Source: Promethearchaeota archaeon
GTDB lineage: Archaea; Asgardarchaeota; Lokiarchaeia; Sigyniarchaeales; SOKP01
Assembly (NCBI GenBank): GCA_030599585.1
Contig: JAUVNS010000010.1
Coordinates: forward strand, 1 to 64,000
Direction: 5' to 3'
DNA length: 64,000 nt
Part shown: piece after piece, positions 1,899 to 38,264 of the stretch
How positions within the stretch are numbered: the first letter of the stretch is position 1
Layout of the letters: the number at the start of each line of letters is the position of its first letter
The notes under the pieces: generated by a model
Told to the model about the DNA's origin: nothing
Database searches by the model: none
The model's input: the letters and a program-made list of their open reading frames with translations, nothing else
Program-made: the position numbers and the translations under genes

Positions 1899-4800
1899 GA
1901 CGGGTGAATGAAAATATGAAGAGAATTAAAAAGATAAAATCTTTGGGTTTATTTTTTGTTATGGTAATTTTATTATTTCTAATACCTTTAGGGTCTAATT
2001 TCTTAAATTATAATTATGAACATCCAGTTAAGCAAACAGAATTTCTTCATAGTTCAGCGGAAACTGTATTTAATCAGGAATGGCTTGATAATAATGATTT
2101 CTCTACTCAGGATGCGTGGTACTATACAAAAGGTTCCCAAGGAGATAATTCGACTGTAGATGCCAGTATAAGCGGAGGAAGTGCTAATTTTACAGTTTTA
2201 GGAGATGAACAGATCAAAGAAATATCATCACCCCTCAATGACGGAACGTGGGTACAGTTTAGGAATGATATTTTTCTTTATCCAGATACTGCGACAATCA
2301 CTGCTGATGGTTGTTATGTTGATCATCAATATGATGAATCAGTAAATCAATCTCGAAATTATCACAGCGTGCATTGGAAAAAGATTGTTTCAATGGGTAG
2401 TGATATGTCTAAAAATATTATAAATTCAGCATCACTTGAGGTTATTTTCAACGCAACTGTAAATGTCAATGTTGATGTGGAAAATGATAACATTTCCCCT
2501 CAATTTGGAATTGGTGACTTTGCAACTTTCTATGTCTTAATCTCTGATTTAGATTTTACTAATCCTTACAGAGTAGCTAATAATAAAACCTCAACCTTAG
2601 GACAAGATTCTCCTCCGATTACAACAATAACTGATAAACTAATTGAAACTGTAGATGAAGAGGATATAATTACTGCTTTAAGTTCTTCTTTAGACAAAGA
2701 CCCGGAGCACTCTAATTTTACAATTACGCTGGGAATTGATATTTATTGTGAAGATAATTTTATTACTGACTACGATTATTGGGACGCTTTATTGATTAAA
2801 TCTCTTAATCTAACATTCTCGTATGAGAAAAAAGTCGAGAAATTCAGCTCTGTTTCTTGGAATCAAATAGGAAATCAAATTTCTGGAGATAATTTTCAAA
2901 TTACCCAAGCAAATCTTAAATTCCAAGTTAAAATTGACCAAAGTTGGCCTACATCGTTATCTCCTTTTTCAGAAGTTAGAATTTTGATAAATAATAATCC
3001 TCATTTTGAAACGATAAGATTATCCTCTGTTAATGGCACATTTCAAGATGCTAAAACGGGTGGTTTTGATGTAACGAATCTTGTTTATAAAGAAGTGAAT
3101 ATTTCTTTATCGATACAAGTCTTTATAGCTAACACATTTGGATTAAGTAATAATATCACTTTTTCTATAGATAATGTGTATTTAAATATTACATATATTG
3201 AAATGTTTGCAGATTATGAGACTGAATCTCAACTATTTTTAGAAAGCGCTAATAAAACTGCTGATCCATTTATTCAAATCTCATTAGAAAATACTGTAAA
3301 CATCACGATAAAATATTTAGATAACGAAACGAACCATATTGCTGGTGCTATCATTCAACTTAGTGGAAAAGTTTCGAGTCAATTATCTGAAAATTCTTCT
3401 TTCGGACAATACTCAACAGTCATAGATAGCACTGATCTTGAAATAGGAATATGGGCGTTAACAGTGACTGCCCAGAAATCTAATTACGAGACCCAAACAA
3501 TTCCATTCTTTATTGATGTAGTTGAACGAACAACTGATCTCCAACTCTATGTAGATGGTTTTCATAAAACAACCAATAATACGATGAATATAAAATATAA
3601 TGAGGCTATGAACATTACAATTTTATATCGAGACGATCTTACAAATCAACATTTAGATGGGGCAAATGTTTCAATTACAAATTTTGGAAGTTTGGATGAT
3701 TTTAATGAACAATATAATATTACCATAAATTCGAACAGTTTAAACTTAGGTTTTAATGTCTTAACAATTACAGCCAATTTAGAAAATTATACATCTCAAA
3801 CTTTGCAACTTTATGTAGAAGTGTATGATAGAACGACAGATTTTAAATTATTGGTTAATGATTTTGAAAAAGTTGAGAATGATTTAATTCAAATTCAAGT
3901 TGGTGAGATTCTAAACTTAACTATATTTTATAAGGATACAGTGTTTCAAAGTCATCTCAGTGGAGCAATAGTTGAGCTTTTAGGAGTTGGAAATTTCAAT
4001 GAAACAGGTTCTCAGTATAATTATAGCATTGATTCGAGAGACTTAAACATAGGATTTAATATTTTATCAATTTCCGCTCAATTGGATAATTATGAATCTC
4101 AGAATATTCAGATTTATATTGAAGTATACAGCACACCATCAGAAATAACTCTTACAGTCGATAATGTTCCAACTAATCCAAATACAATAGTACAGGTCAA
4201 AGTAGATGAGTTTATCAACATAACCGTGTTTTATAAGGATAATGAGACTAAACAGCACTTAACAGGGGCGACAATAGAGTTAATAGGATGGGGAAATTTT
4301 AATGAAACAGGTTCTCAATACAATTATTCGGTTGATACGAATGTATTAAGTCAAGGAATAAGTGTATTAACGATTACAGCACACTTAGGTGATTACCAAT
4401 CACAAAATATACAATTTTATGTAGAAATCATCGAAAAAGCAACAGAATTAAAATTGTATGTAGAAAGTGATGAGAAGTTTGAGAAAGATACTATCCAAGT
4501 TGAGATAAATCAAATATTGAACCTAACTATCTTCTATCAAGACAATGTATCAAAAGTGCACTTAATTGGAGCTAATATAACGTTAATAGGAGTGGGAAAT
4601 TTCAACGATATTGGAACTCAATATTATTATAGTTTAAACTCAAGCGATATTGGAATAGGATTTAATGTAATAACCATTTCTGCTCAGTTAGATGATTACC
4701 AATCACAAAATATACAGTTTTATATTGAAGTCTTAGAGAAAGCATCGGAACTAAAATTATATGTGGAAGGTGAAGAGAAGTCAGAGAAAGACACAATTCA

Positions 4801-6541
4801 AATCGAATTCAATCAATTATTGAATTTAACTATCTTCTATCAAGACAATGTATCAAAAGTGCACTTAATTGGAGCTAATATAACGTTAATAGGAGTGGGA
4901 AATTTCAACGATATTGGAACTCAATTTTATTTTAGCTTAAACTCAAGTGATATTGGATTAGGATTTAATATAATAACAATTTCAGCTCAATTAGATGATT
5001 TCCAATCCCAAATCATCCAGATATATGTGGATGTATACGAAATCCCTACAGAATTGGAGCTGGTCTTAAATAGTTTTACACAAGATGATAAATATACATT
5101 AGAAGTGGAAGTAAACGAATTTATTAATATCACTATTTTTTATCGAACCAACTCAACAAAGCAGTTTTTGAATGATGCAACTGTAGAATTAATTGGATGG
5201 GGTAATTTTAGTGAAATTGGAGCTCAATATAATTTTACCATCAATACAAATGATTTGGAACAGGGGATAACGATCCTTACAATAAACGCTCACTATACAA
5301 ATTATTTAACGCTAAGTGTTCAATTTTATGTTAAAGTAATTGAACGAGCTAGTGAATTTCGATTATTATTCGATGGAGCTCAAATAAATGAAACAGATAC
5401 ATTGAGTGTTGAAGTAAATCAATTCTTAAACTTTACAGTCTTTTATCAAGATAATTTAACAAAGCAACATTTAAGTGGAGCAACAATATCTCTCTTAGGA
5501 ATGGGTAATTTTAGTGATGTTGGTAGTCAATACTATTACTTATTAAATACTAATGATTTAGAACAAGGGATAACAATACTTACAGTTTTAGCGTATTTAG
5601 AAAATTACCAACCCCGATCTTATCAATTTTATGTTAAAGTATCTGAAAGAGCTTCTGAAATATCATTATTTTTAAATTCAGAAGAAAAAACGACCGATCC
5701 CGTGTATGAACTTCCATTTGGTAGTATTTTAAATATTACAGTTAAATATTCGGATAATCAAACTAAAATCCATATTACTGGAGGTAGTATCCAATTAATA
5801 GACAGTGCCTATTCTTATAATCTCACTGAAAATATAGCTCTGAACCAATACATGTTATTACTAGATACAACTGATTTAAAAATTGGAGTGAATTTATTCA
5901 CAATTATTGCATACGCTAACAATTTCCAAATTAAGACAATAACTTTAAGGATTACATTGAATAAAATAGCTACTGTAATAAATACTACTTCTGGAGATAC
6001 TTATTTTAGCATATTACCTAGCGAATCTATATTACTATCGATAGAATTAACCGATTCTGATTTTGGGGGGACAATTACTGATGCTACAGTTACTTATCAA
6101 TGGGCATATGGTCAAGGCACTCTTTTAGATCCTGAAAATGATGGTATTTACGAAATTGAATTAGAGAATATTCCAACAGGTATTTATACAATAACTATTA
6201 CTGCTTCTGCGGGAGATGATTATAGCTTTGAAACTTACGAAATTACAATAAATGTTGTATCAGTTACACCAGATGATTTTTCTCTATTATTCATTGCATT
6301 AGCAGGAGCTCTCGTTGCTATGGTTCTAGGGATTACACTTTATCAAGTTCGGTTTAAATATCCTCCTACTGTAAGAAAATCGAGAAAACTTAGGAAGAAA
6401 ATACGAAAAGGTAAAAAGACAAAACCTGTAAAAGACATTATATCTCGAGAAGAATTGATTAAAGACCACCTCGAAAGTAATACCGAAATTATTCAATTAG
6501 AAAAAAAAACCGAAAATGGATTTAAAAAAAGTAAAAATTAG
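1895..6541 (+). CDS. Large cell-surface protein (1548 aa), paralog of the upstream gene
   Basis: N-terminal signal/TM, ~101-aa beta-rich repeats, C-terminal TM plus FKYPPTVRKSRKLRKKI tail; ATGA overlap with the upstream stop. Confidence 0.85.
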   Translation: MRRVNENMKRIKKIKSLGLFFVMVILLFLIPLGSNFLNYNYEHPVKQTEFLHSSAETVFNQEWLDNNDFSTQDAWYYTKGSQGDNSTVDASISGGSANFTVLGDEQIKEISSPLNDGTWVQFRNDIFLYPDTATITADGCYVDHQYDESVNQSRNYHSVHWKKIVSMGSDMSKNIINSASLEVIFNATVNVNVDVENDNISPQFGIGDFATFYVLISDLDFTNPYRVANNKTSTLGQDSPPITTITDKLIETVDEEDIITALSSSLDKDPEHSNFTITLGIDIYCEDNFITDYDYWDALLIKSLNLTFSYEKKVEKFSSVSWNQIGNQISGDNFQITQANLKFQVKIDQSWPTSLSPFSEVRILINNNPHFETIRLSSVNGTFQDAKTGGFDVTNLVYKEVNISLSIQVFIANTFGLSNNITFSIDNVYLNITYIEMFADYETESQLFLESANKTADPFIQISLENTVNITIKYLDNETNHIAGAIIQLSGKVSSQLSENSSFGQYSTVIDSTDLEIGIWALTVTAQKSNYETQTIPFFIDVVERTTDLQLYVDGFHKTTNNTMNIKYNEAMNITILYRDDLTNQHLDGANVSITNFGSLDDFNEQYNITINSNSLNLGFNVLTITANLENYTSQTLQLYVEVYDRTTDFKLLVNDFEKVENDLIQIQVGEILNLTIFYKDTVFQSHLSGAIVELLGVGNFNETGSQYNYSIDSRDLNIGFNILSISAQLDNYESQNIQIYIEVYSTPSEITLTVDNVPTNPNTIVQVKVDEFINITVFYKDNETKQHLTGATIELIGWGNFNETGSQYNYSVDTNVLSQGISVLTITAHLGDYQSQNIQFYVEIIEKATELKLYVESDEKFEKDTIQVEINQILNLTIFYQDNVSKVHLIGANITLIGVGNFNDIGTQYYYSLNSSDIGIGFNVITISAQLDDYQSQNIQFYIEVLEKASELKLYVEGEEKSEKDTIQIEFNQLLNLTIFYQDNVSKVHLIGANITLIGVGNFNDIGTQFYFSLNSSDIGLGFNIITISAQLDDFQSQIIQIYVDVYEIPTELELVLNSFTQDDKYTLEVEVNEFINITIFYRTNSTKQFLNDATVELIGWGNFSEIGAQYNFTINTNDLEQGITILTINAHYTNYLTLSVQFYVKVIERASEFRLLFDGAQINETDTLSVEVNQFLNFTVFYQDNLTKQHLSGATISLLGMGNFSDVGSQYYYLLNTNDLEQGITILTVLAYLENYQPRSYQFYVKVSERASEISLFLNSEEKTTDPVYELPFGSILNITVKYSDNQTKIHITGGSIQLIDSAYSYNLTENIALNQYMLLLDTTDLKIGVNLFTIIAYANNFQIKTITLRITLNKIATVINTTSGDTYFSILPSESILLSIELTDSDFGGTITDATVTYQWAYGQGTLLDPENDGIYEIELENIPTGIYTITITASAGDDYSFETYEITINVVSVTPDDFSLLFIALAGALVAMVLGITLYQVRFKYPPTVRKSRKLRKKIRKGKKTKPVKDIISREELIKDHLESNTEIIQLEKKTENGFKKSKN

Positions 6542-27503: not shown

Positions 27504-28655
27504 ATGGGAACTATGAAAATTGATGGATATTGTGATGAGCGCTTTATTTCAGTAAAACACGCTTTTGAGAAAAATTTTGAGTTGGGATTCGAGGTTGGCG
27601 CTTCTTTTGCTGTTTCATTAAACGGTAAATTAGTAGTAGATATTTGGGGAGGCTTTTCCGATTCGGCTAAAACAAAACCATGGGAAAAAGATACTATTGT
27701 CAATGTTTTCTCAACGACAAAGGTCATGACAGCGTTGTGTATTCATCTGTTGGTTGATAAAGGTTTAATAAATGTAGACGCACCCGTCGCTAAATATTGG
27801 CCTGAGTTTGCCCAAGCAACTAAAGAAAATATACTCGTTAAGCATCTTATGAGTCACAGCGCAGGTTTGCCGGGGTTTGATGAAAAAATCCCGGTTGAGG
27901 CTTTATACGATTGGGATCGCATTATAGGTTTATTAGCTTCACAGGAGCCATGGTGGAAACCAGGTACTAAAATTGGGTATCATATGATAACTTTTGGATA
28001 TTTATTAGGTGAACTAGTTCGAAGAGTTACTGGCAAGAGTTTAGGTGAGTTTTTTCGAGATGAGATCGCCGTTCCTCTTAACATTGATTTTCACATTGGA
28101 TTACCAGAAACCTTTGATTCTAGGACTTCAAATATTATTCCTCCCGAAGAGGTTTTTGCTAAATGGTAAATTGTTTTTGCTAAATTGTTTCTTAAAAAGG
28201 CTGTAAAAGTGTTATTCAATCCAAATTTAGAAGATGCCGATTTTAATAGTCGAGAATGGCGTTCTGCGGAAATCCCTGCATCTAATGGACACGGAAACGC
28301 GAGATCGATTGCTAATATTGGATCCATCTTAGCTTGCGGAGGATTGTATGATAAGAAGAAGATCTTATCAATGTCCACTATAGAAAAAGCTATTGAACCA
28401 CAAATCAGTGGTCGCGATAAAATTTTGCTTTATTCTCCTGCCAAATTTGGTTTGGGATTTGGTCTTCTAAATGACAAATTATTGCTTGGTCCTCGAAGTT
28501 TTTACTGGAGTGGTGCCGGAGGCTCTATCTGTGTTATGGATCTTGAGAAAAAATTGAGTATCGGATATGCTATGAATAAGATGTACATGAAAGGAGAAGA
28601 CCCAAGAACAGGACAGCTTGTTAAAACTGTATGGGACGTAATAAATAAAGATTAA
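27504..28655 (+). pseudogene. Serine hydrolase (beta-lactamase/EstB family) interrupted by an in-frame TAA at 28167-28169
   Basis: STTK (SxxK), YHM and WSGAGG motifs; both ORF fragments are in the same frame. Confidence 0.85.
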
Positions 28656-33870: not shown

Positions 33871-34143
33871 CAAATCTTTTAACTTATAACTCTTAAGATT
33901 TTATGATTTCTTTAGCTTTATTAATAATATTTAAATATTTACAAACTAAGAAAAAAATCAAAATTGCTAATTATCTTATTCTTTTATAGGAACTAACAAG
34001 CCAAAATTTTTAATTTAGAATTAATCTCCAAAAACTAATTACTTTATTTTACAATTTCAATTCTATTGTTTTTATATTGAACTATTGAAAAGAAAAACTA
34101 AAAAAAAAAGATTTAAAAATTTAATCCAAATACTGAATAACAG

Positions 34144-34434
34144 CTATGTCTCTGGAACTTCAGTCAAATCTCCCCAAACTTCTATATTTCCCTCATAACC
34201 CTCAATTTTCCCATAGTTATTCAAGATAGTAGCCGCATCTGCTAGAGCTTCACCTACCTTTTCCCCGGTTACCTTAGTGAAGATCATTCCAACGATCCCT
34301 TTCTCAGAACCTGTATAAGCAAAAACAGTAGTTTCTCCAACAGAACCAGTCGGATTTTCAAGGCTTTGGAAAACTTTCGCAACTTCTTCTTGTTTATGCG
34401 AGGGATACCACCATCTCATAACAATATATACCAT
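34144..34434 (-). CDS. Small alpha/beta protein (paralog of 36271-36594)
   Basis: GAGG SD; pattern MV....(W/F)P..K..EV...(Y)..IEG(Y/F). Confidence 0.7.
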   Translation of the reverse strand: MVYIVMRWWYPSHKQEEVAKVFQSLENPTGSVGETTVFAYTGSEKGIVGMIFTKVTGEKVGEALADAATILNNYGKIEGYEGNIEVWGDLTEVPET

Positions 34435-34524
34435 TTTAATAAACCTCTTTAATTTGAATTACACCAAAAATATTGACTTTGATGTAAATCATTATTGATG
34501 CTAATTAATATATAAATCTTTATT

Positions 34525-34544
34525 TTTTCAACTATTGTTGAAAA
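34525..34544. promoter_or_regulatory. Inverted repeat TTTTCAAC-N4-GTTGAAAA next to a TATA box
   Basis: Perfect 8-bp arms; TTTATATA on the - strand at 34509-34516. Confidence 0.4.
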
Positions 34545-34667
34545 TTGCAAACTCAAATTTTTTTATTTCTTATTAATTTCAGACTTTAACTTAGAAATGA
34601 GTAAGAAAATATTTAATTTAGAATTAATTTATAAAGTTAAAAATACGACAGAATTGGATTAAATTTT

Positions 34668-34791
34668 GCCTCCGTGGCTTAGGTCGGTAAAGCGTTGCCT
34701 TGGTATTCATATTAATGAACCAAACAGGCAAAGGCCGCGGGTTCAAAAGTGAGAAAATGTCTATTTTCCGCTGAAACTCCCGCCGGAGGCT
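34668..34791 (+). tRNA. tRNA-Thr(GGU) with two introns (37/38: 34706-34725; 59/60: 34748-34777)
   Basis: Acceptor GCCTCCG/CGGAGGC, U73, anticodon stem TTGCC/GGCAA, T-stem GCGGG/CCCGC; BHB-type motifs at both introns. Confidence 0.9.
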
Positions 34792-35880
34792 TAATTTTTT
34801 TCTTTTTTTTTAATCCAAGAACCATGGATTGGTATATTAATTCCCCATTTTGTGCAATATTTTTTTACTGTTTTACCAGATACACCAAATCTTTCTCCAA
34901 TTTTATATAAAGGCATAAGACTTGCCAATTCTTCAAGTTCTTGACTAGAGATTTTAAATTTTGTTCTATGTGATCCATTCCAAGCATTTTTTTTAATAGA
35001 TTCTATTCTCTCTTCTTCTGTCTTAAATCTATTTCTTTTTCTCGGAAGACTATCTTTATAATTATCTAACATCTCATTAAATAAGCAGGAACCTAATGCT
35101 AGCCTATAAGCAACACCATTGACTTCTCTTCCGTCTATTGGTCCTCCAGATCTAACAATTTCAATTTTATGGTTTATAAAAAATTTTTTATTTATTTGCT
35201 CAAGAAATATCTTACTTCCTGATGTTATTTTAGAAGTTTTTTGTGTGCCATCACCGTCAAAATAACCTAAAAGAAATGCTAATTTTAATTCTCTAGTCTT
35301 TAATTGAGGAAAATTAATGTTATTTGATTTTTCTTTACCAGGAATTAAACCATTACTAATTAGGGCTCTGATAATCTCTTTACAGCAAAAAGATATTCTG
35401 AACCTATTTTTTAAATTTTGTATATATTTTGGATTGACTCCAATATCTTTAATAAATCTGTCAATGATCCATAAATCTTTTATACCCGCATCAATACCAA
35501 CTCGATAAGGTACACCTTTATTAGTTTTAATAAATCCATCTGCAAAAAGAAATCCTAACCAGTATGCTTTATTCTTAGTATCAACTTTTTTGAAATAGTG
35601 TATGTCAATATTAGGATGATATTTAAAAATATTTTTAGATTCAATGTCTTCTTTTTTAAGTCTTAAATCATCCTTCGAAACATTTTCATTACATGGCTCA
35701 AAATCGTTTTCAAGGTTCATTTTGCTTAGAAAGGAGTCTTCATCACGAAGTATAATAATATTACTAATTAAATCACATTCTATATTATGGGGCGTTGGCT
35801 AATATTAGGATAATTTATCTAAAATATCTAGACACTCCGAATATTTTCAATAAATTGTTATGAGTTAAGCCCGGAGGCTT
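34783..35880 (-). mobile_element. ~1.1-kb LAGLIDADG-encoding insert bounded by the 10-bp direct repeat CCGGAGGCTT of the tRNA 3' end
   Basis: CCGGAGGCTT at 34783-34792 and 35871-35880. Confidence 0.6.
34791..35720 (-). CDS. Free-standing double-motif LAGLIDADG endonuclease with C-terminal HTH
   Basis: AYWLGFLFADG and AFLLGYFDGDG; LYKIGERFGVSGKTVKKY HTH. Confidence 0.85.
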   Translation of the reverse strand: MNLENDFEPCNENVSKDDLRLKKEDIESKNIFKYHPNIDIHYFKKVDTKNKAYWLGFLFADGFIKTNKGVPYRVGIDAGIKDLWIIDRFIKDIGVNPKYIQNLKNRFRISFCCKEIIRALISNGLIPGKEKSNNINFPQLKTRELKLAFLLGYFDGDGTQKTSKITSGSKIFLEQINKKFFINHKIEIVRSGGPIDGREVNGVAYRLALGSCLFNEMLDNYKDSLPRKRNRFKTEEERIESIKKNAWNGSHRTKFKISSQELEELASLMPLYKIGERFGVSGKTVKKYCTKWGINIPIHGSWIKKKEKN

Positions 35881-35968
35881 TCTTATTTCTTTTTACTTCT
35901 GATAAAACAAAAAACATAATAATAATTTTAAATTAGATTAATAGTTAATAATAAAATATATTTAATTT

Positions 35969-36106
35969 GCCGGTGTGGCTTAGCTGGTTATAAAACATTC
36001 GTATTAAATGTTTGTTTAATAAGCGCCAGACTCATAATCCTACTGAAAAAATGGGTCAGACTGGATGTAATCTGGAGGTTCGTGGGCTCATATCCCACCA
36101 CCGGCA
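35969..36106 (+). tRNA. tRNA-Met(CAU), elongator-type, with two introns (D-arm ~35993-36022; 37/38: 36037-36069); atypical T-loop, possibly a pseudo-tRNA
   Basis: Acceptor GCCGGTG/CACCGGC, A73, anticodon stem CCAGA/TCTGG, T-stem GTGGG/CCCAC with loop CTCATAT. Confidence 0.75.
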
Positions 36107-36270
36107 TTTTTTCTATTTTGAATCAAAATTTCAAATAAATTGTATTAAATTTCTTTAAAAAAAAAACCATTTTTTTTATTTGACAAATAAGTATAAATTT
36201 TTAAATGATTTTATCCTACTACTCATCACCTTTAAATCCAATTAAAAAATGTCAAATAGAGGTGAAAAGT

Positions 36271-36594
36271 ATGGTTTTAGTTTTAACTACCACACGGTTT
36301 CCCGTAAATAAGGGAAGAGAAGTTAGCGAAAGATATATTGCAGTAGAGAAAGAATTTCCTCCTGATAGATCTTTATCGAAGGTGATTTTACGATTAGCAG
36401 CTCGAATAGATGGAGATGAAATAGAAGGCATAGGATTATCAGAAGTCAAAGAAGGCAAGTACGAAGAATTTTTAAAACGGATGATGAAGATGACATTAAA
36501 GTATGCAGATATCGAAGGATTTTCATCTAAAAGCGAAGTCTTCCTATCAGGGGTAGATGCATTACCAATGGTAGGTCTTGAGATGCCAGAATAA
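36271..36594 (+). CDS. Small alpha/beta protein (paralog of 34144-34434)
   Basis: GAGGTG SD before ATG 36271 (track start 36205 is probably too far upstream). Confidence 0.7.
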   Translation: MVLVLTTTRFPVNKGREVSERYIAVEKEFPPDRSLSKVILRLAARIDGDEIEGIGLSEVKEGKYEEFLKRMMKMTLKYADIEGFSSKSEVFLSGVDALPMVGLEMPE

Positions 36595-36698
36595 CCTTAT
36601 TTTATTTAACTAGGGTAGAAATAATTTTAAACTACTTTTTTTTTATTTTAAACAAAACCTAAAATGTTTTTTAGCTCATTATCTTAAACTTAATTGTT

Positions 36699-38264
36699 AT
36701 GGAAAGATTTATATCAAAAAAAATTTCTTCCGATGAATTATCGATATTAGATAATAACTCAGAATGGTTAGGAATTCCAAAAAGCCATTTGATGGAATGT
36801 GCTGGGTATACATTTGCTACAGAAATTATGGCTCAAGGATTATTGAAGGAAAATTCAAAAGTAGCTATTTTTTGTGGAACAGGGAATAATGGTGGAGATG
36901 GTTTTGTAGTAGCTCGACATTTATCTTCCTACGGAGTGAAAACTTTAGTAATATTAGTTGGAACACCTGATAAAATAAGAACGGAAGAAGCTCAACTTAA
37001 TTGGGACATCATCTTTAGTAATCTAACCTACTCAATTCAGATAACCTTTATTAAAGATTCGACAGACGCAGAAGTCATCAAAAAGATTATAGAAAAGGAT
37101 TTAAGCTACTCTCTAATTGTAGATGCTTTATTAGGTACAGGAATAAAAGGCCAACTGAGGGAACCAATTTCTTCCACAATAGATACGATAAACAGTATTA
37201 GAGAAAAAGAAAAAGAGCGAATTAAAATTGCTTCAATAGATGTGCCTTCAGGAGTAGATCCAGATACTGGAAAAATTCCCGATAAAGCTGTCAATACCGA
37301 TTTAGTTATTACCTTCCACAGAATTAAAAAAGGATTGAAAAAAACAGGAAAATATCAAATAATCGAAAAATCTATTGGTATTCCCCCTGAAGCGAGCATA
37401 TTTGTCGGGAAAGGCGATTTGCTATCGAACTTAAAATTAAGAACCGCCGACACACATAAGGGAGAATTCGGTAGAGTTTTAGTAATTGGTGGTTCAAAGA
37501 ATTATTCCGGAGCCCCAGCGTACGCGTCCTTAGCATGCATTCATTTCGGGTGTGACTTGGTTATTAGCTATGTTCCGGAAGTTGTCGGAGATGTCATCCG
37601 TAGTTATTCACCGGACATGATTGTACGGACGAGCCCTGGAAAATGGTTATCAACAAAAGCTTTAGAAGAAATTCTATGGTTAATAGATTGGGCAAATGCA
37701 ATTATTATAGGTCCTGGCTTAGGAACAGATCCATCAACAGAAGAGCTTTTAGTAAAAATATTAGAAGGCAATAATATTGGTGAAAAATCTTTAGTTATCG
37801 ATGCTGATGCCTTAAAACTAGTTAAACCACACCTAGACTTGATTAAAGGAAAAAAAGTTATACTTACGCCTCACGAGGGAGAACTTAAAATTATTACAGA
37901 TTCCGATTTATCTCCCTTTGATAAAATAGAAAAAAGAGGAATAGAAGTTTTTAACATAGCAAAAAAGCTGGACGTTACCTTATTAGCTAAGGGACCGTTC
38001 GACTATATAAGCAACGGGATTATGCTTAAGATAAACAAAACTGGATGCCCTGAAATGTCAATCGGGGGCACAGGCGACGTACTTGCAGGCTTATGCGCCA
38101 GTTTTTTGACAACTGGAAGCAACCCATATCAGGCTGCTTATTCTGCCGCTTTCCTCAATGGATACTTAGGAGAATATTGCAAAAAAACAATCGGCCCTAG
38201 ATTTACGGCAATGGATATGATAAATAACATTAATAACGGAATTTTGAGTTTACAAAATTATTAA
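36699..38264 (+). CDS. nnr: Bifunctional NAD(P)HX epimerase/dehydratase
   Basis: LMECAG, GTGNNGGDG, DALLGTG, DVPSG, HKGEFG, TPHEGE, GGTGDVLAG. Confidence 0.95.
   Translation: MERFISKKISSDELSILDNNSEWLGIPKSHLMECAGYTFATEIMAQGLLKENSKVAIFCGTGNNGGDGFVVARHLSSYGVKTLVILVGTPDKIRTEEAQLNWDIIFSNLTYSIQITFIKDSTDAEVIKKIIEKDLSYSLIVDALLGTGIKGQLREPISSTIDTINSIREKEKERIKIASIDVPSGVDPDTGKIPDKAVNTDLVITFHRIKKGLKKTGKYQIIEKSIGIPPEASIFVGKGDLLSNLKLRTADTHKGEFGRVLVIGGSKNYSGAPAYASLACIHFGCDLVISYVPEVVGDVIRSYSPDMIVRTSPGKWLSTKALEEILWLIDWANAIIIGPGLGTDPSTEELLVKILEGNNIGEKSLVIDADALKLVKPHLDLIKGKKVILTPHEGELKIITDSDLSPFDKIEKRGIEVFNIAKKLDVTLLAKGPFDYISNGIMLKINKTGCPEMSIGGTGDVLAGLCASFLTTGSNPYQAAYSAAFLNGYLGEYCKKTIGPRFTAMDMINNINNGILSLQNY

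Follow-up and report, generated by a model that had tools for sequence, protein, structure and literature searches.

How can an intron spread between alleles of a tRNA gene, and can an endonuclease encoded beside that gene carry it? This question is raised by a 64,000-nt stretch of contig JAUVNS010000010.1 (GenBank assembly GCA_030599585.1), hereafter the window, from a Lokiarchaeial (Asgard) metagenome-assembled genome (MAG), in which an intact gene for a LAGLIDADG homing endonuclease abuts the 3' end of a tRNA-Thr gene with two introns. The comparisons presented below identify the locus as a genuine, laterally mobile, free-standing LAGLIDADG cassette that travels with one sequence type of T-loop intron. 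According to the reading that we favor, with a probability of about 0.62, a ~1.1-kb and probably active cassette in the spacer between tRNA-Thr and tRNA-Met moves together with the T-loop intron by break repair that would use the two tRNA genes as arms, and the intron would be protective. An initial annotation of the window had proposed that the enzyme cuts intronless tRNA-Thr and spreads along with the immunizing intron, an interpretation that as a whole is partly supported. The genome of the window is designated G000, related genomes are given other G codes, and individual loci are given L codes, of which L241-L246 are metagenomic. The locus comprises the following features:

34668-34791, + strand: tRNA-Thr(GGU) gene of 124 nt with two introns; T34791 is the discriminator, and the exons match the intron-free orthologs in G015, G032, and G025.
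34706-34725, + strand: canonical 37/38 anticodon-loop intron of 20 nt, missing at the exact position in G008, G016, and others; its removal restores a Thr(GGT) cloverleaf.
34748-34777, + strand: T-loop (59/60) intron of 30 nt, sequence type A, with a hairpin fold between the T-stem strands; it is present or absent at this exact position among 28 congeners.
34783-34792, + strand: left copy of CCGGAGGCTT, made up of the last T-stem base, the acceptor 3' strand, the discriminator, and the first trailer base.
34791-35720, - strand: intact free-standing LAGLIDADG homing endonuclease gene (309 aa), abutting the tRNA-Thr 3' end.
35721-35870, - strand: non-coding upstream part of the cassette, the presumed promoter region, also conserved in G027, L241, and, in part, L242 and L246; its right end is ...GAGTTAAG (35869).
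35871-35899, + strand: right copy, in which 29 nt of the resident tRNA 3' end and trailer are duplicated; its first 10 nt equal the left copy, and it is found in G000 only.
35969-36106, + strand: tRNA-Met(CAU) with two introns, the inferred right homology arm (Rfam tRNA match of 41.2 bits).

All elements that the initial annotation had described at this locus are present in the sequence, and its observation is thus confirmed. The stop codon TAA of the 309-aa open reading frame (ORF) is the complement of positions 34791-34793, so that T34791 is common to the stop codon and the tRNA discriminator. The GC-rich 10-mer CCGGAGGCTT occurs exactly only at 34783 and 35871 in the window, and the insert between its two copies measures 1078 bp. 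No integrase and no ORF of at least 60 aa, other than frames overlapping the endonuclease gene, were found in this insert (34793-35870), leaving the endonuclease ORF as the only credible one. The T-loop intron ends 5 nt before the start of the repeat and lies 14 bp from the cassette. In silico removal of both introns gives a 74-nt tRNA that ARAGORN calls as Thr(GGT). The tRNA genes discussed here were placed by eye, by orthology, and with a home-made T-arm scan because the standard tools missed intron-bearing tRNAs: ARAGORN reported zero tRNAs on the raw 64-kb window, tRNA-Thr included, Rfam at E<=1 missed tRNA-Thr and gave tRNA-Met(CAU) as its sole tRNA match in the window, and at the gathering score Rfam missed the multi-intron tRNA-Met of L079. 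Of the two introns of tRNA-Met(CAU) in G000, the 33-nt one lies in the D-loop region and the 35-nt one follows the anticodon. The former is missing in G027 and present in L241 and G020, indicating that the polymorphism of intron presence and absence reaches the neighboring tRNA as well.

Orthologous loci were compared by a DNA search with window positions 33900-36700, which gave matches in 39 of the 42 genomes of the genus. The right-hand match starts exactly at window position 35871 in G016, G002, G020, G005, and G008. In all of these but G020, it directly adjoins or overlaps the match to tRNA-Thr on the same contig, and in G020 the abutting pair of matches sits on a separate short contig (C93). 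The interval from tRNA-Thr to tRNA-Met was read in 28 of the 42 genomes, the other 14 having a broken contig or no retrieved locus. Empty-site alleles, which the initial annotation had suggested looking for, were found in 24 of these 28, where the junctions show the tRNA 3' end continuing straight into the trailer. The full gene is present in two genomes, G000 and G027, the latter carrying it in the same place at 84% identity, and remnants of ~290 bp with the same left junction are present in two others (G021 and G065). Presence and absence at one exact site, with clean empty sites across the 28 alleles, is the distribution expected of a homing element. A metagenome scan yielded 28 loci, of which the six with at least 63% identity were examined and the 22 others left out; L242 and L243 are one sequence in two records, giving five distinct metagenome loci. 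Cassette size and content are constant down to 63% protein identity, and the copy in L246 is frameshifted. The locus L245 is rearranged in the region ~260 nt beyond the gene stop: a complete tRNA-Thr, whose T-loop is odd but has no intron, is followed by a chimeric pseudo-tRNA (the 5' part of tRNA-Met joined to the 3' part of tRNA-Thr with a T-loop intron), the endonuclease gene, and a tRNA-Met with a T-loop intron.

A T-loop intron was found at the exact tRNA-Thr position in 12 of the 28 genus alleles and in none of the remaining 16. These introns fall into four sequence types:

Type A: G000, G027, G034, G014, G021, and G065.
Type B: G016, G005, G008, and G026.
Type C: G035.
Type D: G007.

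The gene or its remnant is present in four genus alleles, all of them of type A (4/4), and in none (0/16) of those that lack a T-loop intron. In 5 of 5 distinct metagenome loci, the gene likewise adjoins a T-loop intron, which is of type A in L241, L242, L244, and L246. Taking the 28 genus genomes and the five metagenome loci together, 9 of 9 copies or remnants lie beside a T-loop intron, in agreement with the co-occurrence that had been put forward as a test of joint homing. A gene that is adjacent to an endonuclease-less intron, lies outside of it, and is inherited together with it constitutes the arrangement seen in collaborative homing. The type A intron also occurs without the gene, in G034 and G014; together with the remnants and the frameshifted copy, these intron-only alleles demonstrate that the cassette decays in some lineages. 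The nine copies and remnants are distributed over three tRNA-Thr backgrounds, which differ in their other introns and in one acceptor base pair:

Anticodon-loop intron only: with gene or remnant, G000, G027, and L241; without gene or T-loop intron, G002, G010, G030, and G064.
D-loop intron: with gene or remnant, L242, G021, and G065; without gene or T-loop intron, G018, G063, G029, and G012.
D-loop and anticodon-loop introns: with gene, L244 and L246; without gene or T-loop intron, G061, G031, and G013.

The divergence of the endonuclease gene was compared with that of flanking host genes, using the proportion of synonymous differences (pS) and the estimated synonymous (dS) and nonsynonymous (dN) divergence:

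G000 vs L244: gene pS 0.29 and dS 0.37; host 315-aa gene ~800 bp away, pS 0.72 and dS ~2.5 (saturated).
G000 vs L246: gene copy frameshifted; same host 315-aa gene, dS ~2.8.
G000 vs G027: gene dS 0.35; host 521-aa gene, dS 0.71.
G000 vs G002: no gene and no T-loop intron in G002; host dS 0.13 and 0.22.
G000 vs L241: gene pS 0.23; host third-position differences 17% (raw difference counts, 129-aa ORF).

Between G000 and L244, the gene is far less diverged than its host neighbor (dS of 0.37 vs ~2.5), from which we concluded that the cassette and the intron move laterally as a unit; the lateral mobility implied by the initial annotation is thereby supported. In at least this one comparison, the cassette has had a history separate from that of its host. 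By both flanking genes, no relative is closer to G000 than G002, which nevertheless carries neither the endonuclease gene nor the T-loop intron; the two were thus gained or lost jointly inside a tight clade. A history that departs from that of the host, as seen in the comparison with L244 and in the empty allele of G002, is a property by which homing elements are recognized. The gene has evolved under purifying selection, with dN/dS ratios of 0.15-0.28 across all 15 pairs of six copies.

The extent of the moved unit can be read from the spacer between the two tRNA genes. Empty alleles of both D-loop backgrounds have a Thr-Met spacer of 10-14 nt, and in the cassette-bearing D-loop alleles and the G021/G065 remnants, the stretch from the gene to tRNA-Met contains the long-spacer motif typical of the other kind of allele. 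This foreign-type spacer reaching up to tRNA-Met indicates that the moved unit spans from the T-loop intron to tRNA-Met, and lateral movement most likely proceeded by break repair with tRNA-Thr and tRNA-Met as homology arms. In the mechanism that we propose, the enzyme would make a double-strand break in the T-arm/acceptor 3' region of cassette-free tRNA-Thr alleles, a cassette-bearing allele would provide the template for its repair through the conserved tRNA-Thr and tRNA-Met genes as homology arms, and the repair would co-convert the T-loop intron, the gene, and the spacer. The intron would split the recognition sequence and thereby protect its carriers, making the system an archaeal counterpart, with a bulge-helix-bulge (BHB) intron, of phage collaborative homing. 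We infer that the enzyme would cut intronless tRNA-Thr and that the intron would immunize against it. Two observations on G000 bear on the putative target. The intact right copy at 35871 persists beside an intact gene, and another tRNA-Thr of G000 shares the CCGGAGGCT end and has a different T-arm. Together they suggest that recognition requires sequence 5' of CCGGAGGC, namely the T-stem and the T-loop into which the intron is inserted. The right copy begins 5 nt 3' of the intron site, which would be compatible with a break at that position and subsequent imprecise joining.

Several observations weigh against this mechanism, in which the target of the enzyme and the protection by the intron are putative. 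The intron and the cassette are 14 bp apart, and since any recombination would co-transfer them, their linkage alone shows no functional tie. The acceptor 3' strand between the intron and the cassette matches each recipient background, one base pair differing between backgrounds, which calls for a later compensatory change or a patchy tract in place of a simple continuous one. The contrast with host divergence rests on one or two flanking genes and on metagenome contigs, and the divergence between G000 and L241 is compatible with vertical descent. In six congeners that lack the gene, this tRNA-Thr site holds an intron of type B, C, or D. Within G000 itself, T-loop introns of ~30 nt are present in ~9-10 of ~40 tRNA genes, and the endonuclease gene lies beside only one of them; this count, ~9-10 genes with T-loop introns vs ~30 with uninterrupted T-loops, comes from the home-made T-arm scan, in which most 'interrupted' matches are noise and the tRNA-like ones were chosen by eye. 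Most members of the endonuclease family are not beside tRNAs, and T-loop introns are mostly missing from the tRNAs (Phe, Val, Ser, Ala, Arg, and Leu) that neighbor other members. The T-loop introns of G000 measure 29-31 nt and have a similar hairpin architecture (for example, on contigs C4, C9, C11, C21, and C32), and ARAGORN reports 36 tRNAs in the whole genome.

Part of this evidence would be accommodated by vertical inheritance, an explanation that we consider unlikely. Under this alternative, the cassette and the type A intron are ancestral and have been repeatedly lost together by gene conversion from empty alleles, tRNA-Thr is not targeted or the enzyme is inactive, and the link between gene and intron reflects their 14-bp distance. 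The commonness of T-loop introns without the gene, the similar divergence of gene and host between G000 and L241, and the existence of decayed copies all agree with such a history, as does the absence of a general mobile-element link for Asgard tRNA intron gains in the available part of a recent study (10.64898/2026.10.13.758758). Against this alternative stand a gene dS of 0.37 beside a saturated host neighbor (~2.5) in the comparison of G000 with L244, the same cassette with its foreign-type spacer in alleles whose relatives have spacers of 10-14 nt, purifying selection on the gene, and the retained catalytic residues.

The direct repeat and the short inverted ends, to which the initial annotation had attached significance, are present in the window but are not features of the element. 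Three one-mismatch matches to CCGGAGGCTT occur in the window; the two examined, at 28516 and 46974, lie within coding sequence and were dismissed as further repeats, being attributable to chance. The segment 35871-35899 (CCGGAGGCTTTCTTATTTCTTTTTACTTC) is identical to the tRNA end and trailer of the empty alleles of G016 and G008, and the right repeat is missing at the other five loci with the same cassette, namely G027, L241, L242, L244 (where the contig ends), and L246. In G027 and L241, the same cassette end (...GTTAAG) is followed by a different stretch of 27-29 nt in place of the right repeat, and a diverged form of this stretch is found in L242 and L246. Confined to G000, the right repeat is best regarded as a derived scar of the G000 lineage, and neither as an attachment (att) site nor as a target-site duplication; the 29-nt scar at 35871 may stem from imprecise repair or partial conversion and would be no part of the element. 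The 7-bp inverted ends, GGCTTAA at 34788-34794 and TTAAGCC at 35865-35871, are not conserved in G027 or L242, and we consider them a chance occurrence because they depend on the G000 scar and on a left junction that is absent from G027 and L242. The overlap of stop codon and discriminator is kept in L241, L244, L246, and the G021/G065 remnants and lost in G027 and L242. The G027 copy has lost the TAA at the tRNA end, and its frame runs into L002 765-900 and ~70 codons antisense through tRNA-Thr. A decayed T-arm copy to the left of the right repeat (GAGTTAAG vs the T-loop) and a decayed right repeat in G027 and L241 were also considered and were rejected as too weak in AT-rich sequence. The bracketing repeat and the inverted ends are thus incidental, which weakens this part of the initial proposal.

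The same comparisons bear on the alternative raised in the initial annotation, an attL/attR remnant of a deleted integrative element. Such an element would have been a tRNA-targeting virus or plasmid of which a single cargo gene is left between the two repeats. Integration at tRNA genes is a classic pattern, the tRNA 3' end does recur as a direct repeat on both sides of the insert in the window, and partial tRNA duplications flank relatives of the gene in L079, L086, and L090. However, the insert contains no integrase or any other gene, the right repeat is missing at five other loci that have the same cassette with conserved ends, and the right copy consists of resident trailer and not of element sequence. 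In addition, the constant size and content of the cassette down to 63% identity would not be expected of a decaying remnant, and viral contigs carry distant relatives only (<=34% identity). We thus regard an att remnant as very unlikely.

The product of the gene has the characteristics of a single-chain LAGLIDADG endonuclease with two motifs, as judged by family profile, fold, and catalytic acids, which supports the identification of a free-standing homing endonuclease cassette at the tRNA 3' end. The 309-aa protein matches the Pfam family LAGLIDADG_3 with 28.3 bits (cutoff 22.5) and gives a sub-threshold C-terminal match to a helix-turn-helix (HTH) domain in Pfam; NCBIfam returned nothing useful for it. 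A profile built from 12 relatives matched I-HjeMI (1.8e-7), I-DmoI, I-AniI, and I-Tsp061I in the PDB. An AlphaFold2 model based on 53 sequences, with a mean predicted local distance difference test (pLDDT) score of 85.7 and a predicted template modeling (pTM) score of 0.72, consists of two alpha-beta-beta-alpha-beta-beta-alpha halves followed by a three-helix HTH-like C-terminal domain. Foldseek matched the model at a probability of 1.00 to intein-associated and intron-encoded LAGLIDADG enzymes, including I-Tsp061I and I-DmoI, and placed WhiA (3hyi; LAGLIDADG plus HTH) at rank 6. Motif 1 ends in D61-G62 and motif 2 in D157-G158, both motif-terminal acids being retained; among the 53 sequences D155 and G158 are invariant and D157 is at least 90% conserved, so that the second motif is nearly invariant. 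The enzyme is probably active and, like others of its class, would make site-specific double-strand cuts in a long target (~20 bp). Its gene is single-copy in the 4.85-Mb, 52-contig genome, and the Lys-rich tail of the protein merely reflects the opposite strand of the T-rich tRNA trailer. The non-coding stretch 35790-35869, which precedes the endonuclease start codon, shows conservation in G027 and L241 and partial conservation in L242 and L246, and it may represent a promoter or regulatory site. A domesticated DNA-binding protein of WhiA-like LAGLIDADG-HTH architecture, with a host function and no mobile nuclease, might be suspected from the three-helix C-terminal domain, the Foldseek rank of WhiA, and the purifying selection, but it is hardly credible for a gene that conserves both catalytic Asp residues, is patchily present at one site with remnants and a frameshifted copy, is missing from the closest relative G002, and encodes a 309-aa protein with no match to the WhiA Pfam domains. 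WhiA is a conserved bacterial housekeeping regulator that has lost its catalytic acids; it shares with the present protein two LAGLIDADG domains followed by a helix-turn-helix, whereas the present protein has kept the acids and is patchy in distribution.

Relatives of the endonuclease, which include proteins of 76-88% identity and are annotated at NCBI as 'LAGLIDADG family homing endonuclease', were matched in 31 of 61 genomes of related organisms. Their hosts are Asgard MAGs of the Promethearchaeota (Lokiarchaeia), Hel-, Hermod-, Hod-, Odin-, and Thorarchaeota, and Atabeyarchaeia. Family members are found as free-standing proteins of ~280-310 aa, as proteins of ~400 aa with an N-terminal extension, or within much longer open frames. 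The latter were considered as inteins, an option that was rejected since their N-terminal parts have no intein or other Pfam match; these parts were taken as N-terminal extensions of unknown kind. The expectation that homologs sit beside tRNAs was borne out as an enrichment and not as a rule: ARAGORN detected a tRNA within 3 kb at 19 of 80 family loci and within 500 bp at 17 of 80, compared with 1.6% expected for random 900-bp genes in G000, leaving most members away from tRNAs. The binomial tail for this excess, 6.5e-16, was computed for 18 loci, the recount being 17, and the counts are inflated by orthologous loci, with ~10 distinct site classes. By set, a tRNA lies beside a family member in 9 of 19 loci of the first set and in 1 of 20 loci of the further set; among paralog loci, 1 of 20 has a tRNA, at the same place as L068. 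In L055 and L070 (and probably L066), the member lies between an SNF2-family helicase gene and a SWIM zinc-finger gene, and in L056 it lies next to an Eco57I-type methyltransferase, indicating that the family has several unrelated target sites. A paralogous lineage with ~50% identity (L131-L134, from G018, G029, G025, and G063) is located at a second site within the genus, between tRNA-Ser(GCU) and tRNA-Val(UAC), the G063 copy being a 223-bp internal-deletion remnant; in genomes without the paralog, tRNA-Ser and tRNA-Val are ~20 bp apart and tRNA-Ser is reversed, as judged from BLAST strands.

In Atabeyarchaeia, family members are flanked by partial tRNA duplications with breakpoints in or next to the T-arm:

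L079: 1753-1866 and 4112-4279.
L086: 2550 and 4153.
L090: 2291-2316 and ~4690-4815.

At L090, the tRNA has a T-loop intron and the gene is convergent with it, and on the far side of this gene lies a 26-nt intronless copy of the T-arm/acceptor 3' region; no ORF of at least 100 aa was found in the L090 insert outside the gene span. The 'tRNA-Ile with 2451-nt intron holding gene' that ARAGORN reports at L090 was discarded as an artefact that joins the real tRNA to the duplicated 3' fragment. In L079, a 5' fragment of tRNA-Met lacks a T-loop intron and stops after the first two bases of the T-stem 3' strand; it is followed by a methyltransferase gene, the endonuclease gene, and a full tRNA-Met with a T-loop intron. 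L086 has a tRNA-like 5' fragment that ends at the T-loop. Nearly all Atabeyarchaeial tRNAs bear introns, a fact that counts against reading much into these cases, and the parallels appear suggestive, not statistical. The wider proposition, that LAGLIDADG enzymes of this lineage cleave the T-arm/acceptor 3' region of tRNA genes across the Asgard archaea and that T-loop BHB introns spread and persist by breaking their recognition sequence, is possible and for now rather doubtful.

Among known systems, the closest analogy is phage collaborative homing, described, in the portions of the sources available, for F-CphI with the cyanophage psbA group I intron and for T4 mobE with the I-TevIII intron (PMC6083498, PMC2790892). 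In both settings, the gene lies outside but adjoins an endonuclease-less intron and is inherited with it, and the proposed principle is cleavage of intronless alleles by an enzyme against which the intron shields its carriers. The differences are that the intron here is a 30-nt protein-spliced archaeal tRNA intron of the BHB type and not a self-splicing group I intron, that the enzyme is of the LAGLIDADG and not of the Endo VII-like or HNH kind, and that the host is an Asgard cellular chromosome and not a phage; cleavage and protection are predictions in the present case. The seg and mob endonucleases of T4-like phages also form intergenic cassettes that spread by break repair with flanking co-conversion and leave a patchy distribution with decayed copies; they differ in enzyme families and host, and in the present locus two flanking tRNA genes are able to serve as universal homology arms. 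By profile and fold, the closest solved structures are those of I-DmoI, I-Tsp061I, and I-PorI, archaeal enzymes tied to BHB introns with the same fold and catalytic motif arrangement. Their genes lie inside rRNA introns, whereas the present gene is free-standing, and its protein has an extra HTH-like domain. The intron-encoded arrangement of I-DmoI does not apply here, as the intron measures 30 nt and the ORF is located outside the tRNA on the opposite strand. A transposition of tRNA introns has been proposed for Thermoproteales (Sugahara 2008 and Fujishima 2010, as cited in the accessible part of 10.64898/2026.10.13.758758). Those archaea likewise show repeated gain of non-canonical tRNA introns; there, introns are copied between tRNA genes of one genome and no enzyme is named, whereas here one intron type moves across genomes between alleles of one tRNA gene, along with a nuclease gene. 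In literature searches on Asgard and Lokiarchaeota tRNA introns, LAGLIDADG enzymes, free-standing and collaborative homing, and intron transposition, we found nothing on the arrangement reported here.

To our knowledge, Asgard archaea have the most intron-ridden tRNA genes known, and introns are said, by Randau and Söll, to protect tRNA genes from integrating elements. In Atabeyarchaeia and Freyarchaeia, 92-95% of tRNA genes have introns, according to a report whose available portion does not mention homing (PMC11291895). Gains of Asgard tRNA introns are described as repeated and as having no general arrival route, such that 'how they arrive remains open', in a study whose accessible text contains neither the word 'homing' nor the word 'LAGLIDADG' (10.64898/2026.10.13.758758). 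The locus described here has a real chance of bearing on this question, as it offers a concrete, bench-ready case in which an identifiable nuclease gene and one tRNA intron travel jointly between genomes. Should the enzyme not cut intronless tRNA-Thr, the locus would still be a clean free-standing archaeal homing cassette with two tRNA genes as homology arms. If the wider proposition of an Asgard-wide lineage that cuts tRNA genes is true, this would be the first collaborative homing with a protein-spliced archaeal tRNA intron, and the unusually abundant non-canonical tRNA introns of Asgard archaea would in part have arrived by endonuclease-driven co-conversion, after which the endonuclease gene was rapidly lost. 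An enzyme that cuts intronless tRNA-Thr DNA would also provide a new natural LAGLIDADG-plus-HTH scaffold with a tRNA-gene target, and it would connect the gain of tRNA introns with selfish endonucleases in the prokaryotes most closely related to eukaryotes.

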